A stretch of DNA of 64,000 bases from an uncultured Pseudomonadota bacterium. Lineage in GTDB: Bacteria; Pseudomonadota; Alphaproteobacteria; Rs-D84. The notes under the pieces are model-generated. The model was given only the letters and a program-made list of their open reading frames with translations, made no database searches and had not been told where the DNA came from. Position numbers and translations under genes: made by a program. Positions within the stretch are counted from its first letter, which is position 1, and the number at the start of each line of letters is the position of its first letter. Of the stretch, positions 4,006 through 61,960 are shown one piece after another. The stretch spans positions 16,944 to 80,943 of the forward strand of contig CACXXP010000005.1 in assembly GCA_902771695.1 (NCBI GenBank). The letters run 5' to 3'.

Positions 4006-6486
4006 TTATAATTCTATGGGCGGGAAGCAATCACCACCCGCATCCGGACAGCAATTAAATCCTTGTTCGCCCATGTCGGTATACGTTTCACCCGGACAGC
4101 ATCCATTTGCATCAGGGTTTGCGCCATCACCACATGTAATGGTGGATGAATCTTGGGCAGGGGCCGCGGCGGATTCTTTCTTTTCCTTTTTGAATGGATT
4201 TTTAATATTTCCGTCTTCGTCATATTCCAACCCAAGAACCTGAGTATTATATTCTTTGGACCCTTGGGGAGTATTGTTTTGGAATTGTTCTTTTTGGTTT
4301 TCATATACGGCTTTTTGCTTTGCATTATTTTTTGCTTCGTATGTACCAAACGAACGGCAATAAAAGTCAAGAGTAGTGAAACTGTATTTCTTACATTCTT
4401 CACTTTTGTATGACACTGGCGCTGCGCAAGAATCATCTTTGCATTCACAGCAACTATCTTTTAGAGACGCTTGCATCATTGAACGAACCTGGCCGATTAA
4501 TTCTTCTATATTTTGACTTTCTTGGAAATCTTTGCTGACTTCGCCACGTGATATCGGTGCAGGCGCATGAACGGCGCAATTACGACTATCGGTATTTGGA
4601 TCACCACATGTTATAACCAAATCAACCGGTGAGAATACGGTAATACGTGTTCCTGCCGCAATTGAAAACGGTGGGGTGGTATTGTCCATCATATCAACCA
4701 GTAATTTTGTTGCAACATTATTCCATGCGGTAATAATTTCGTTCTTGGCCAATTCAGATGAACGCACTGTTCCACTTTGTACAACGGTGTTATTATCCAA
4801 ATCAATTTGATTTACAAATGCATCAGATATTGGTGCAATCATATTTACCGCCGCCGGAACAATCGCCGTCAACATAGGCATAATAAATTGTTGCAGGTAA
4901 TCCGTGCTGCCGTGGCCGGGAACACCTTTACGTCCCTGGGAATCAGCCGAGAATGGATTTTTACCATTGTCAAATGCAAATTCAACACCATCTGGACGAA
5001 TAAACTGATACCATTCTATCTGCATACGACCAACAGCCTTATATGGCCCAGGTAAATCGCCAACAACACGGCCCAACATCAATGTGCCTGTTGGAATTAT
5101 AACAGTACGTCCATTATCAGAATAAACATTACGATCAACCGTTGCACGCACAGGTAATCCACTTTCCAGTAATTTGGCATCTGCTTGGACATCGGAAACA
5201 ATTGTGGCCGGAATTGGTTTATATTGACGCAATACAAATGTCCGGTCGTATGGTAATGTTGAATACACTGTATCACCGTTATCATACCCAGAAAATTCAT
5301 TTGTTTTTTTTCGGGGTGTTAAATTGACATGATATGCCTGGGCCCCCGCATCACCCGCATCAGCCGCGGATGCAATTTGTATTCCCAATTCTTCATCGGT
5401 CAGCTGGCGCGCACGCGCGGCAACGCCACGATTTGATTTTCCCCCACTTAATTGAGGCATACGTTCTTGGACTGTTAAACGGATATGTTCGGCGTCAGAA
5501 CCAATTTTACGCGATGGATTTTTTATATCCATGATATAACCTGTGTCGGCATTGTAAATACCGGTTGCGTTCTTGCAATCAACATCAGAAAACGGATGAT
5601 AATAATATGCACCGGCCTCTGGAGTTATCCATCCACTTTGGATACCGGCGGTATTATACCCTGGGAAAGAGAAATCAGAACAATTATTCCCAAATGGTGA
5701 ATAATATTTTTTTTCGATATCTTTTGCCTTGGCCATTGGTTGTGGAGCGGCAAAATTTATTGGTGGTGCAATATCATCAATATCTTCTTGGAAATCCAAA
5801 TCATCTGTGGGTTCATCTTCGTATTCCGTATCAAAATCATCCACAGGTTCATCATCCGCAGGTTCTGGAATCGGTGTGGGTTTTACAACAGGTTCTTCAT
5901 CCATCGGATCAATATCCAAATCTTGCCCCGATGCCGTAACGTGATGTATTTTCGGTGGTTCATGCGCACCAATCACCGCAGTTATTGCATTTTTTGTCTC
6001 AATTGGGTCTGGGCCAATTTCAAATGCCGTCCATGTAAGTGAAACCCCAACATGTGTCCGTTGAATAACATGTTTTGGCGCATAATCCAATGTTATAAGA
6101 CATGGCGTTGCTTCGGTGACAAATGTGTGTTCATTGGTGCACGTGGCCATTGCAGAAATACCGACATCTTCGTCTGGTTCACCTTCAACCTGGACAACAA
6201 CATTTGTGATTTGAACACGTGTATTTGCATACACTTGGATTTCAGCGCTACGTGTTTCATTAACAAGTGTGTTTGACCAATCAATTGGCGTATCAGGGTC
6301 AAACCGTAACGTTGGGGTTATTGGAATAACTTCTTCATCTTGGATAATCTTTTTATTCTTTTTGCTGCCAATCAACAGCAGTAATAGAATAATAACGATA
6401 ATCAGTGCCGCAAACATCAACACCCATAACACTGAACGTGGTGTAGATTTGCGAAAATCTGAAAAATGCTGACCAACTTTTCCCAT
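4006..6486 (-). CDS. virB10: VirB10/TrbI-family type IV secretion core protein with long N- and C-terminal extensions
   Basis: IPATIVSDV, VRATVDRNVYSDNGRTVIIPTGTLMLG, RMQIEWYQFIRPDG, ADSQGRKGVPG, IAAGTRITVF; single N-terminal TM; start placed at ATG 6486 (ORF extends to 6546). Confidence 0.85.
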   Translation of the reverse strand: MGKVGQHFSDFRKSTPRSVLWVLMFAALIIVIILLLLLIGSKKNKKIIQDEEVIPITPTLRFDPDTPIDWSNTLVNETRSAEIQVYANTRVQITNVVVQVEGEPDEDVGISAMATCTNEHTFVTEATPCLITLDYAPKHVIQRTHVGVSLTWTAFEIGPDPIETKNAITAVIGAHEPPKIHHVTASGQDLDIDPMDEEPVVKPTPIPEPADDEPVDDFDTEYEDEPTDDLDFQEDIDDIAPPINFAAPQPMAKAKDIEKKYYSPFGNNCSDFSFPGYNTAGIQSGWITPEAGAYYYHPFSDVDCKNATGIYNADTGYIMDIKNPSRKIGSDAEHIRLTVQERMPQLSGGKSNRGVAARARQLTDEELGIQIASAADAGDAGAQAYHVNLTPRKKTNEFSGYDNGDTVYSTLPYDRTFVLRQYKPIPATIVSDVQADAKLLESGLPVRATVDRNVYSDNGRTVIIPTGTLMLGRVVGDLPGPYKAVGRMQIEWYQFIRPDGVEFAFDNGKNPFSADSQGRKGVPGHGSTDYLQQFIMPMLTAIVPAAVNMIAPISDAFVNQIDLDNNTVVQSGTVRSSELAKNEIITAWNNVATKLLVDMMDNTTPPFSIAAGTRITVFSPVDLVITCGDPNTDSRNCAVHAPAPISRGEVSKDFQESQNIEELIGQVRSMMQASLKDSCCECKDDSCAAPVSYKSEECKKYSFTTLDFYCRSFGTYEAKNNAKQKAVYENQKEQFQNNTPQGSKEYNTQVLGLEYDEDGNIKNPFKKEKKESAAAPAQDSSTITCGDGANPDANGCCPGETYTDMGEQGFNCCPDAGGDCFPPIEL

Positions 6487-6511
6487 AATATCATTACCCC
6501 AAGAATTTTTA

Positions 6512-60212: not shown

Positions 60213-60259
60213 AGAAGTGCGATTTCGTTTCAATCGCATAATCTGATAGGGATACGTGA

Positions 60260-61960
60260 ATGAAAAAACATATTTATTCTTTGTTGGCGGTTGTGGTTGC
60301 GATTGGTGACGCGGTGGCGGGGATTCGTGTCGGAAACCTGTCACGGAACTATGCGGGTTCATATAAAAATACCGCCGCATTAGAACAGCAATATAATAAT
60401 TCTGTGGCCGCCGCAGCCCAAGAAGATGTTGTGGTGGATGTTGAATTGCCGGTTCGTGTCGCAAACAAGGAATTGGCCGAACAGGTTAAACGTGGCGATG
60501 AAGACGCGAAAACCAATATTGAAACATTAAACAAGTGTGCGTCTATTTACCCCGATGGCGAATTTGTTTGGGATGTTCCAACACTGGGACGTGGTGCCGG
60601 TGGCCAGGCAACGTGTGTTGCGGTTGTTGAAATGCGTGCGTTGGGTTCAAATGGGGGATTGGAATATACAACGGTTGCACGCGGAAAACTGGCTGCGGGT
60701 GATATGGTACATTGCAATATATCGGACTTTGCAGAAAGTACATATTTGCCAGATATTACCAAGGTTACTTTCCCGGCTGATGAAAGACCAACACGTGAAG
60801 ATGTTGTAAAGGTTATGAACGAAGAACAAAAAAGCAAGGCCGGATTGAAAATTGCAGCCGCCGCATTGGTCGGTGGGTTGGGCGGAAACTTTGTTGGTAA
60901 ATCAGCCCCGGGCGAAGATAAAATGTTGGGGACAAACAAAGAAAAAATGAAAACTACTGCAATTGGTGCGGCGGCGGGTGCGGCACTGATGGCGGCGAGT
61001 ACTTTTTCAGGCAAAGTCGCTGGGGATGTCATTTTGCATACTGGTGTAAACGCGGCGGCGGGTGGTGTTATTGGAAATTTGACCCAAACGGGTGACGATG
61101 TACTGCGTGTTGAAAAATGTACATATAACTCTATTGAAACAACATGTTTGTGGGGCACATTGACCAAGACCGAAGATATAACTTCGGAAAATTTAGACGG
61201 GGTATTTTCTGATGTTTCTGGCAAGAACGTGTTTACCTGTAAACGGAATGAAAATGGTGAAAAAATATCTTGCAGAAAACGGTCAGATTTGGTTGTAAAA
61301 ACGGTTGCAGATAAGCCATTGGGAACGTATGGTCGTGCAGATTTGGTACCGATAACAGATGTTAAACAGAAATACTATTTTCATAAAGAAATTACACAGA
61401 TAACTGATCTTAATGATGCGTCTTCCAAAGAGGCCGATGATAATAATCTTTATTTCATGGCAAGTGCAGAAAAGAAAGCCGGACTTGGACAACAGGCGGT
61501 TGTTGTTGATTACAAAGAAGGTGCATTTGGTAATAAAACAGATACGTGGGAATCATGGAAAGCCGGAAACAAAAAGGCGACATTCTGTTTACGTGATACC
61601 AAGGGTAATCCGGTTGCCGATCAATGCAATGATAAGTTGTCCAAGGGAAAAGATAACGAAGGTAATGATATTCCATATACACTGGATGACTTTAAACCCA
61701 AGGCCCTTAGTGCCGATGATGGCAGTGTTATAGATTTTTCCAACAAGGCACGTTTGGGTTCAACCGTCAAAGGTGCGGGCGTTGGTGGTGCAATGGGTGC
61801 GTTTTCTGGATACCAAGGCGCCCAGGCGGATATCGAAGACCGTCTGACCCAGGCGATACGTGAATATAATGATTCACTGGAAAAGATTTATTGTGGAACA
61901 GGCAAGAAATTCTTGTCGTTCTATAACGATGATGCAGGAATTCCACCGATGAAGAATTAA
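60260..61960 (+). CDS. Secreted protein with several glycine-zipper segments
   Basis: Signal peptide; AAAALVGGLGGNFVG, AIGAAAGAALMAA, AAAGGVIGN, GAGVGGAMGAFSG. Confidence 0.8.
   Translation: MKKHIYSLLAVVVAIGDAVAGIRVGNLSRNYAGSYKNTAALEQQYNNSVAAAAQEDVVVDVELPVRVANKELAEQVKRGDEDAKTNIETLNKCASIYPDGEFVWDVPTLGRGAGGQATCVAVVEMRALGSNGGLEYTTVARGKLAAGDMVHCNISDFAESTYLPDITKVTFPADERPTREDVVKVMNEEQKSKAGLKIAAAALVGGLGGNFVGKSAPGEDKMLGTNKEKMKTTAIGAAAGAALMAASTFSGKVAGDVILHTGVNAAAGGVIGNLTQTGDDVLRVEKCTYNSIETTCLWGTLTKTEDITSENLDGVFSDVSGKNVFTCKRNENGEKISCRKRSDLVVKTVADKPLGTYGRADLVPITDVKQKYYFHKEITQITDLNDASSKEADDNNLYFMASAEKKAGLGQQAVVVDYKEGAFGNKTDTWESWKAGNKKATFCLRDTKGNPVADQCNDKLSKGKDNEGNDIPYTLDDFKPKALSADDGSVIDFSNKARLGSTVKGAGVGGAMGAFSGYQGAQADIEDRLTQAIREYNDSLEKIYCGTGKKFLSFYNDDAGIPPMKN

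Follow-up and report, generated by a model that had tools for sequence, protein, structure and literature searches.

Do the remodeled type IV secretion system (T4SS) core and the cysteine-rich exported proteins encoded in one 64-kb stretch of alphaproteobacterial DNA (contig CACXXP010000005.1; hereafter the window, meaning the whole stretch analyzed) form a single export apparatus? A reading made from the sequence alone (the sequence-only reading) had proposed that they do, treating some 58 kb as one system in which a VirB8-VirB9-VirB10 core exports or displays periplasmically folded, eukaryote-like proteins. Our analysis separates the two. The Cys-rich gene nearest to the virB operon is 15 kb away, and the supposed elements of the system lie 15–55 kb apart among ∼35 housekeeping genes in a genome of less than 1 Mb, a co-location that is within chance. 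Gene linkage between the core and the Cys-rich proteins is likewise lacking, as the virB operon consists of virB8-9-10 with its own terminator. T4SS-mediated export of the Cys-rich proteins is therefore unsupported, and we favor, with about even confidence, a reading in which the window holds two lineage traits that share a small chromosome rather than one genetic system.

The window is ordinary chromosome. It carries kefB-lspA-yidC followed by tRNA-Trp-secE-nusG-rplKAJL-rpoBC, as well as plsX, fabH, several tRNA synthetases, ldh/mdh, sodB, and peptidases, and its GC content stays at 36%–45% from end to end, with no compositional island. Proteins identical to those of the window are present on ENA and Logan metagenome contigs, one of them a 187-kb scaffold. 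The host is an uncultured Candidatus Enterousia-like alphaproteobacterium of the order Rs-D84, and homologs of its VirB10 come from rumen, livestock, mouse, and human gut metagenome-assembled genomes (MAGs) labeled Alphaproteobacteria or Candidatus Enterousia. Rs-D84 genomes are smaller than 1 Mb, lack respiration and amino-acid, nucleotide, and lipid synthesis, and have an incomplete glycolysis, from which a partner-dependent lifestyle was proposed; the same paper mentions no secretion system, only “hypothetical membrane-bound proteins” (PMC12306168). In our literature searches, no paper described a T4SS for Rs-D84 or Enterousia.

The core proposed by the sequence-only reading is borne out. 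Three genes on the minus strand, virB8 (8114–8770), virB9 (6512–8083), and virB10 (4006–6486), encode proteins of 218, 523, and 826 amino acids (aa), respectively, and match PF04335 VirB8 (E 1.4e-11), PF03524 CagX (E 1.9e-20), and PF03743 TrbI (E 5e-16), all above the curated Pfam cut-offs. The NCBIfam models for VirB10, ComB10, VirB9, and VirB8 score far under theirs. VirB8 has an N-terminal transmembrane (TM) helix. The virB10 open reading frame (ORF) opens at GTG 6546, and its homologs all begin at M21 (ATG 6486), which is probably the true start and the one from which the 826 residues are counted.

This block is a fixed feature of the lineage. virB8 occupies an identical position in 74 species loci, and the order rpoB...nusG, virB8-virB9-virB10-orf114-orf111, yidC-lspA-kefB recurs in nearly all of 80 species-representative loci. 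The virB8-9-10 block remains intact despite differing upstream context, and also in a sister lineage that places it in another chromosomal context; relatives of VirB10 number more than 850 homologs from 247 species. A terminator-like hairpin and T-run (3960–3978, minus strand) follows directly 3′ of the virB10 stop. virB8-9-10 is thus its own transcription unit and, rather than an island, a vertically inherited trait of the lineage. Word depth in metatranscriptome contigs is 2–13 over virB9 and virB10; in those runs, rpoBC and the genes of ribosomal proteins reach 20–65. Contigs of the bacterium, including virB10, also occur in polyA-selected RNA-seq libraries labeled gut metagenome (runs X2 and X6; window positions 1–20000), where they could reflect either carry-over or association with a eukaryotic cell.

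VirB10 comprises a cytoplasmic N terminus, a TM helix, two conserved Cys-bearing periplasmic domains, an acidic/Pro linker, the TrbI barrel, and a C-terminal extension. The Pfam stretch of the TrbI/VirB10 domain covers residues 440–640 (4627–5229, minus strand) and includes two long antenna-like helices, which a low-confidence AlphaFold2 (AF2) model of VirB10 puts at residues 549–569 and 599–619. The lineage-specific extension of ∼190 residues (residues 647–846; 4009–4608, minus strand) contains the conserved blocks GQVRS, DFYCRSFGTY.A.NNAKQ, and YN..VLGL.Y..DG.I.NPF. It ends in a six-cysteine tail module (4009–4134, minus strand) of the form C-x10-CC-x14-CC-x6-C, which terminates in CFPPIEL and is invariant in 67 VirB10s. 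In alignments of 20 and 67 homologs, spanning ∼45%–99% identity, the invariant cysteines are C136, C149, C289, C324, C647, C657, C730, C805, C816, C817, C832, C833, and C840, so the Cys-rich additions that had been noticed on VirB10 are both present and conserved. The tail module and the extension blocks are absent from the sister-lineage VirB10s P0263, P0266, and P0268.

The tail matched no Pfam family or PDB structure. BLAST and a motif scan found no resemblance between it and other window proteins, and neither the tail nor six module proteins matched Pfam at E values up to 10. A granulin/EGF-like reading, suggested by the look of the CCPGE...CCP tail, was rejected, as there was no Pfam match and a Foldseek search of the PDB had no hit with E < 1. 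The description of these proteins as eukaryote-like does not hold, given that no Pfam domain of eukaryotic type was found and the tail module has no Foldseek match in the PDB.

The closest structural relatives of this VirB10 belong to the Helicobacter systems. A VirB10 profile searched against the PDB matched CagY (2e-5, 9e-5) and ComB10 (8e-3) as its only solved-structure relatives; VirB9 matches the CagX Pfam model, and VirB10s of the outgroup reach a CagY-like length of 1400–2400 aa. CagY also carries lineage-specific, Cys-containing, surface-related additions. However, the additions of CagY are N-terminal repeats, whereas those described here form a C-terminal extension with a six-Cys module; other cag genes are absent, and identity in the TrbI domain is ∼25%–35%.

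VirB9 is remodeled as well. It consists of a signal peptide, the CagX/VirB9 domains, a Met/Gly/Asn-rich linker, and a C-terminal SPOR-like domain with two conserved Cys (residues ∼425–523; 6515–6811, minus strand), of which residues 487–521 match PF05036 at 2.8e-4. This domain is retained in 76 of 76 homologs, among which residues 195–330 are near-invariant, and it is also found on VirB9 of the outgroup loci L092 and L158. A full-text literature search returned no paper that combines VirB9 with a SPOR domain, which would probably pin the core to peptidoglycan. The window has no small lipobox ORF that could be VirB7 between virB8 and tRNA-Trp; lipoprotein ORFs are present in the sister lineage (orf57, LLSGC) and in the outgroup (59 aa). 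With SPOR on VirB9, a Cys extension of ∼190 aa on VirB10, and no VirB7 gene in the operon, the core is remodeled, as the sequence-only reading had proposed.

Within the window, the tail module is confined to VirB10. Searched exhaustively with HMMER, a set of 1.84 billion representative proteins yielded 974 relatives. These include small proteins whose similarity is to the VirB10 tail only, repeated two or three times in each. These small module proteins (P0294, P0316, P0325, P0336, and P0355) combine a signal peptide and a two-Cys helical hairpin with two to three tandem modules, and P0336 shares MAG JAIDWS01 with the VirB10 locus L041. A metagenome scan located the module at 64 loci in four architectures, at the C terminus in all: VirB10 itself; ∼20 small tandem-module proteins; proteins of 81–96 aa that pair a TM helix with one module; and bitopic proteins of ∼710 aa that have a cytoplasmic coiled-coil domain, a TM helix, an acidic periplasmic region, and the module at the extreme C terminus. 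The ∼710-aa proteins are encoded beside a prepilin peptidase and GcrA. Genes for the small module proteins have a conserved context, following a MacB/FtsX-type permease and an ABC ATPase. Homologs of the exported 52271 protein (below; proteins are named by the start coordinate of their genes) lie directly downstream of a small module protein in two rumen loci (L099, 3477–4400, E 6e-52; L104, 8529–9263, E 5e-27). In the window, the 52271 gene instead follows tRNA-Thr and cvpA, a difference that suggests rearrangement at the tRNA.

The sister lineage offers a parallel. There, the acidic tail of the VirB10 protein P0268 is similar (E 4e-17) to that of a small membrane-anchored protein whose gene comes immediately after virB10 in L090 (10466–10879). 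Because the six-cysteine module occurs on both inner-membrane-anchored and soluble proteins, and always at the C terminus, its most probable function is docking or adhesion to a common partner; a role as an export signal is unlikely. The sharing of this module between the VirB10 tail and small exported or membrane-anchored proteins is new, and a VirB10 tail in common with small accessory proteins, seen in two sister lineages whose tails are unrelated in sequence, is unreported.

The second trait is the set of exported proteins. Seven had been listed as signal-peptide proteins that are Cys-rich or carry Gly-zipper helices. Their starts are all correct and their N termini signal-like, but only four are truly Cys-rich: the 22198, 25780, 29177, and 53242 proteins contain 3.9%, 4.4%, 4.6%, and 3.8% Cys, respectively, compared with 1.12% in non-exported window proteins. 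The 52271, 54846, and 60260 proteins contain only ∼1.8%. The supposed hydrophobic Gly-zipper helices stand as Gly/Ala-rich, uncharged helices in the 22198, 52271, and 60260 proteins.

All of these genes are on the plus strand. The 22198 gene (22198–23367) encodes a signal peptide, a coiled coil, a Gly-zipper-like helix (MIAGISTIGLTAVGVGVNVAQA), and a Cys-rich C-terminal domain, with 15 Cys. The 25780 protein (25780–29154; 1124 aa, 50 Cys) begins with a signal peptide, has no Pfam match, and comprises acidic, Ser/Thr/Arg-rich, and Cys-rich helical-repeat regions and a Cys/Thr-rich C terminus; one of its motifs is common to a 1163-aa protein of the Enterousia locus L051. The exported 52271 protein (52271–53245; 324 aa, 6 Cys) has three Gly/Ala-rich uncharged helices. 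Two exported trypsin-like proteases are paralogs with 47% identity. One (53242–54813) has a Cys-rich C-terminal extension and a weak Trypsin_2 match, and the other (54846–55838) has 6 Cys and matches PF13365 (1e-6) and PF00089 (1.3e-5). The exported 60260 protein (60260–61960; 566 aa, 10 Cys) contains three Gly-zipper-like segments and has no Pfam match.

The 22198 protein belongs to a family with 120 retrieved members, each of which comes from this lineage. Members share an N-terminal module that is >90% conserved, in which a signal peptide and a coiled coil precede the helix MIAGISTIGLTAVG, and they end in differing Cys-rich domains, with a median Cys content of 4%. The Cys module of the 53242 protease (54505–54738, plus strand; residues 427–504 of the 53227 ORF) is common to this family and recurs in ten of its members (BLAST, best E 2.5e-10), which indicates that modules are shuffled between carriers. 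The neighbors of 22198-family paralogs are housekeeping genes (enolase, ssb, rho, groEL), and T4SS genes are absent from their vicinity. Chlamydia Pmp proteins and mycoplasma variable surface proteins are similar in having a conserved N-terminal targeting or anchor part, variable C-terminal parts, many paralogs, strain-level hypervariability, and a reduced-genome host. The difference is that Pfam contains no match to either the N-terminal module of the 22198 family or the Cys-rich modules.

Strains differ sharply at 22110–24003, 32995–34321, and 52541–54033, as expected for exposed proteins. The second of these segments falls in the giant Cys-rich repeat-module gene that begins at 29177. The Cys-rich character that had been assigned to its product stands, but the gene continues to 34350, broken by an in-frame TGA (33011–33013) and a frameshift near 33400. 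Recoding of the TGA was rejected, as the other window genes are intact under code 11 and the tRNA-Trp anticodon is CCA. The two lesions may be real, making this a pseudogene, or reflect an assembly chimera. Three DNA runs that contain a sister strain have unrelated or divergent sequence across 32995–34321, and because sister strains differ there, we read the 3′ end of the gene as a hypervariable cassette. Metatranscriptome depth over the 25780 and 29177 genes is 4–22 (4–19 for 25780), and the 5′ part of the 60260 gene is also transcribed. The Cys-rich proteins are thus a dispersed, strain-variable, module-shuffling family, and so large a hypervariable, module-shuffled set of Cys-rich exported proteins is new. 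Further strain-variable segments, where related-strain metatranscriptome contigs run into unlike sequence, are present at 46908–48324 and 49636–50652 and surround a 337-aa hypothetical protein, a pta-like gene, and a 100-aa Cys-rich ORF.

The exported CPHC oxidoreductase named by the sequence-only reading is confirmed by its motif, a signal-like N terminus, and a Glutaredoxin match. The gene (50656–51291, plus strand) encodes a glutaredoxin-fold protein with a signal peptide and a C-terminal TM anchor; read from ATG 50656, its sequence includes MKKIFGAIAGAMFVGNALA/ADITIYHMPTCPHC. It matches PF00462 Glutaredoxin (4e-8) and the NCBIfam glutaredoxin-like model (2e-10); only glutaredoxin-type models match, and DsbA models do not. 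Like DsbA, it is an exported member of the thioredoxin superfamily with the active-site tetrapeptide CPHC. It differs in its small glutaredoxin-like fold without the DsbA helical insertion and in its C-terminal TM tether, and the Rs-D84 host has no respiratory chain (PMC12306168). The window encodes no DsbB/VKOR partner. The gene is transcribed (depth 9–17 in metatranscriptome contigs), and the protein presumably oxidizes the Cys-rich proteins.

The two traits are for the most part separate in related loci as well. In the window, the T4SS genes share neither an operon nor a location with any Cys-rich gene, and only two exceptions appear among ∼160 related loci. In L051, the gene for the 1163-aa, 44-Cys protein is convergent to virB10; L090, from the sister lineage, encodes a repeat protein with 8% Cys two genes upstream of virB8, and its VirB10 contains four Cys but lacks the Cys tail. 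The one real link between the two traits at the molecular level is that the VirB10 tail module is found also in small signal-peptide proteins. Other export routes exist in the lineage, namely an autotransporter and prepilin peptidase or pilin-like genes. L010 encodes an autotransporter with Chlamydia Pmp repeats beside virB8 (5547–7562), L154 a prepilin peptidase beside a 710-aa module protein (4793–5698), and L051 prepilin-like proteins beside virB10 (10150–15994), one of them PilV/Shufflon_N-like, just under the Pfam cut-off. A TolC-family gene is also present in the lineage.

The core's nearest relatives outside the lineage suggest what kind of T4SS it belongs to. The closest VirB10s beyond the clade (P0263, P0266, and P0268) are ∼815 aa long, with the same N-terminal architecture and an acidic, Cys-free tail, and the next-nearest are the 1400–2400-aa proteins. 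The outgroup locus L092 encodes five exported proteins of ∼290 aa and a 521-aa protein, followed by the T4SS genes in the order virB8, a 59-aa lipoprotein, virB8, virB9(+SPOR), virB10 (2266 aa), and virB11, which we take to be the rvh order of Rickettsiales. Its VirB9 is 34%–37% identical to Enterousia VirB9 over the full length, and L092 is the only one of the searched relatives with VirB11. In L157, L158, and L159, virB9(+SPOR)-virB10 is followed by small ORFs without an ATPase.

Considered together, the observed gene identities, conservation, synteny, module sharing, and transcription are consistent with a model in which the core belongs with these SPOR-bearing VirB9 and giant, CagY-length VirB10 systems of rvh-like arrangement. 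The rvh T4SS is likewise chromosomal, vertically inherited, and not conjugative-looking, with contiguous virB8-virB9-virB10 split from the other T4SS genes in a reduced-genome alphaproteobacterial host, and the nearest outgroup operon, L092, is in rvh order. It differs from the system in the window, where virB10 is not followed by virB11-virD4, virB8 and virB9 each occur once, a VirB7 gene is missing, and SPOR has been added to VirB9 and extra periplasmic Cys domains and a Cys tail to VirB10. This comparison is one of gene order, the curated VirB models scoring far below cut-off. T4SS genes of Rickettsiales are split over several islands. By analogy, at least VirB4 and VirB6, and perhaps VirB11 and VirD4, would be encoded on other islands of this genome, and the T4SS would serve contact-dependent exchange with the partner cell that a metabolically crippled bacterium needs. 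The six-cysteine module that closes the VirB10 extension would bind a common envelope or target-cell partner, stabilized by disulfides. The Cys-rich proteins would form a genome-wide repertoire that crosses the inner membrane by Sec, its modules shuffled onto a few carriers (the Gly-zipper anchor and the trypsin-like protease), and would most likely act in attachment to and digestion of the partner.

Several points weigh against this explanation. No VirB4, VirB6, VirB11, VirD4, VirB2, or relaxase was found in 2.2 Mb of partly redundant Enterousia loci. As no T4SS ATPase was seen in this sampled sequence, the claim that the ATPases are encoded elsewhere in the genome is an assumption. The RNA evidence consists of assembled metatranscriptome contigs, which possibly contain DNA. 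Signal peptides were called by a hydropathy heuristic (a short basic N terminus followed by a hydrophobic stretch), and both the periplasmic or surface location of the module and its disulfides are predicted. The AF2 model of VirB10 residues 431–846 has a mean predicted local distance difference test (pLDDT) score of 48.6 and is unusable, and that of the module, which gives one β-hairpin per module at a pLDDT of 75–87, derives from only five sequences.

To our knowledge, a VirB4-family ATPase is present in all known T4SSs, and the Ptl analogy considered below turns on which ATPases, and whether VirD4, are encoded genome-wide. In 80 species, sequence up to 10 kb from virB10 contains no gene for VirB4, VirB6, VirB11, VirD4, or a pilin, and VirB11, VirD4, VirB6, and VirB2/B5 are absent from the window and its flanks, including those on the 187-kb scaffold. 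The search also took in the loci of 22198-family paralogs and of module proteins, as well as more distant relatives, and of all these only L092 encodes a VirB11. A Walker-A screen of ORFs in the 2.2 Mb of loci detected no T4SS ATPase, finding MsbA-like, UvrB, ClpB, MutS, Obg, and AAA_5 proteins, and tblastn with the outgroup VirB11 gave no match in Enterousia loci.

Such a gene content would also suit a ComB-like competence T4SS that takes up DNA to feed a nucleotide-auxotrophic bacterium, with comB2-4-like genes elsewhere and no need of VirB11 or VirD4. Helicobacter comB8-10 has the same content as this operon and likewise lacks B11 and D4. ComB10 is among only three distinct PDB sequences matched, and it is the second-best NCBIfam match (1e-12). 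Rs-D84 genomes do lack nucleotide biosynthesis (PMC12306168). However, the ComB10 model scores 47.9 bits against a cut-off of 300, below the generic VirB10 model, the closest outgroup operon carries virB11 in an rvh-like order, and the elaborate periplasmic Cys domains have no ComB counterpart. We consider DNA uptake an unlikely function, if the least unlikely of the alternatives.

A little less probable still is that VirB8-9-10 has ceased to belong to a cytoplasm-to-target injector and acts as a periplasm-to-surface platform, on which the VirB10 tail and the tandem-module proteins co-assemble, through contacts stabilized by disulfides, into an external structure exporting or displaying Sec-delivered, oxidized proteins for attachment to the partner. 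Such a platform could be either a Ptl-like route for the whole repertoire or an ATPase-less, T4SS-derived organelle, and each of these, taken by itself, appears improbable.

As in the Ptl system of Bordetella pertussis, a T4SS without a coupling protein could move or display Sec-exported, periplasmically oxidized Cys-rich proteins at the outer membrane. The likeness lies in the idea of a Sec-exported, disulfide-bonded cargo and in the lack of a coupling-protein gene near the core: no virB11 or virD4 follows virB10, in contrast to most relatives with an operon of this type. In favor of this route, there is an exported CPHC oxidoreductase, the same genomes encode small signal-peptide proteins that carry the tail module, and Cys-rich proteins adjoin virB10 in L051 and lie two genes upstream of virB8 in L090. 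Yet ptx and ptl form one operon, whereas here the operon has its own terminator and offers no candidate substrate, the candidates and their paralogs being dispersed among housekeeping genes. The module is also carried by inner-membrane-anchored, non-secreted architectures, Cys-rich repeat proteins occur where VirB10 has no Cys tail, and autotransporter and pilin/prepilin-peptidase routes are available.

An ATPase-less derivative is no more credible than the Ptl-like route; here, all that has been kept would be VirB8-9-10, with a structural or adhesive role in displaying the Cys module and no part in translocation. It would account for the lack of a T4SS ATPase in every sampled Enterousia region, for the extreme conservation of a core with added SPOR anchoring and Cys modules, and for L090, L157, L158, and L159, where virB9-virB10 (with virB8 too in L090) precedes small ORFs without ATPases. 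But the sampled regions are a minority of each genome, and T4SSs of the Rickettsiales type are known to be split over islands. Full conservation of the antenna-like helices and the TrbI barrel suggests a working channel. Finally, a decaying remnant of an integrated conjugative element, as the incomplete gene set at the locus might imply, is essentially refuted by conservation: the position on the chromosome is fixed in ∼80 species, the ORFs are intact with hundreds of invariant residues, virB9 and virB10 are transcribed, and there is no integrase, relaxase, or repeat near the virB8-9-10 block.

The two genes 3′ of virB10 are conserved in the lineage. orf114 (3356–3700, minus strand) encodes a small cytoplasmic protein with 67% mean column identity across 45 species, and orf111 (3001–3336, minus strand) a conserved small protein in whose alignment C19, H24, W64, and C84 are invariant. 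These residues may correspond to a permuted papain-like (LRAT/NlpC-P60) catalytic layout, for which we found no database support; neither protein matches Pfam, NCBIfam, or the PDB, even when searched member by member. Because a 305-bp gap and a terminator separate virB10 from orf114, the orf114/orf111 pair has its own terminator, and the sister lineage has two unrelated exported proteins in their place, both are probably operon neighbors and not parts of the T4SS.

Several of the Cys-rich genes lie between plsX (21071–22135) and fabH (34909–35847), which are normally adjacent and here are 12.7 kb apart. The intervening segment (22136–34908) contains tRNA-Arg(CCT), both giant Cys-rich genes, and the 22198 gene, along with a 122-aa ORF, an exported phospholipase D (PLD)-like gene, and the gene of a small membrane protein. 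The PLD-family phospholipase/cardiolipin-synthase-like protein (24036–25631, minus strand) has two HKD domains and a possible lipobox, FFGC. Like it, a membrane-anchored M13 (neprilysin-like) peptidase (36186–38174, minus strand) is an exported hydrolase outside the earlier list. The small membrane protein (34397–34726, minus strand; 109 aa) has three TM helices, a CC pair in the first, a CNCDHC motif, and His-rich ends; it matches no family and could be a metal or thiol-redox membrane protein. Farther along, two adjacent class-II tRNA synthetase genes (43787–46601, plus strand) are distant paralogs with 20% identity, both prolyl-tRNA-synthetase-like by eye, the first with a CxxC...CxxC insert. 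On another contig of the Enterousia lineage, L087, an ankyrin-repeat protein is encoded at 4270–5388 (Pfam Ank, 2e-22). Ankyrin-repeat proteins are typical T4SS effectors against eukaryotic hosts in Rickettsiales and Legionella.

A strictly conserved and strongly remodeled T4SS core in widespread, tiny-genome gut bacteria is undescribed. The VirB9-SPOR fusion represents an unreported mode of building the outer layer of a T4SS, and it occurs here, together with the shared VirB10 tail, without a VirB7 gene in the operon. Metagenomes from the rumen and from livestock, mouse, and human guts commonly contain Rs-D84/Enterousia bacteria, which are predicted to depend on other cells. The conserved, transcribed core, its Cys module, and the Cys-rich surface set provide handles on how the partner is attached to and exploited.

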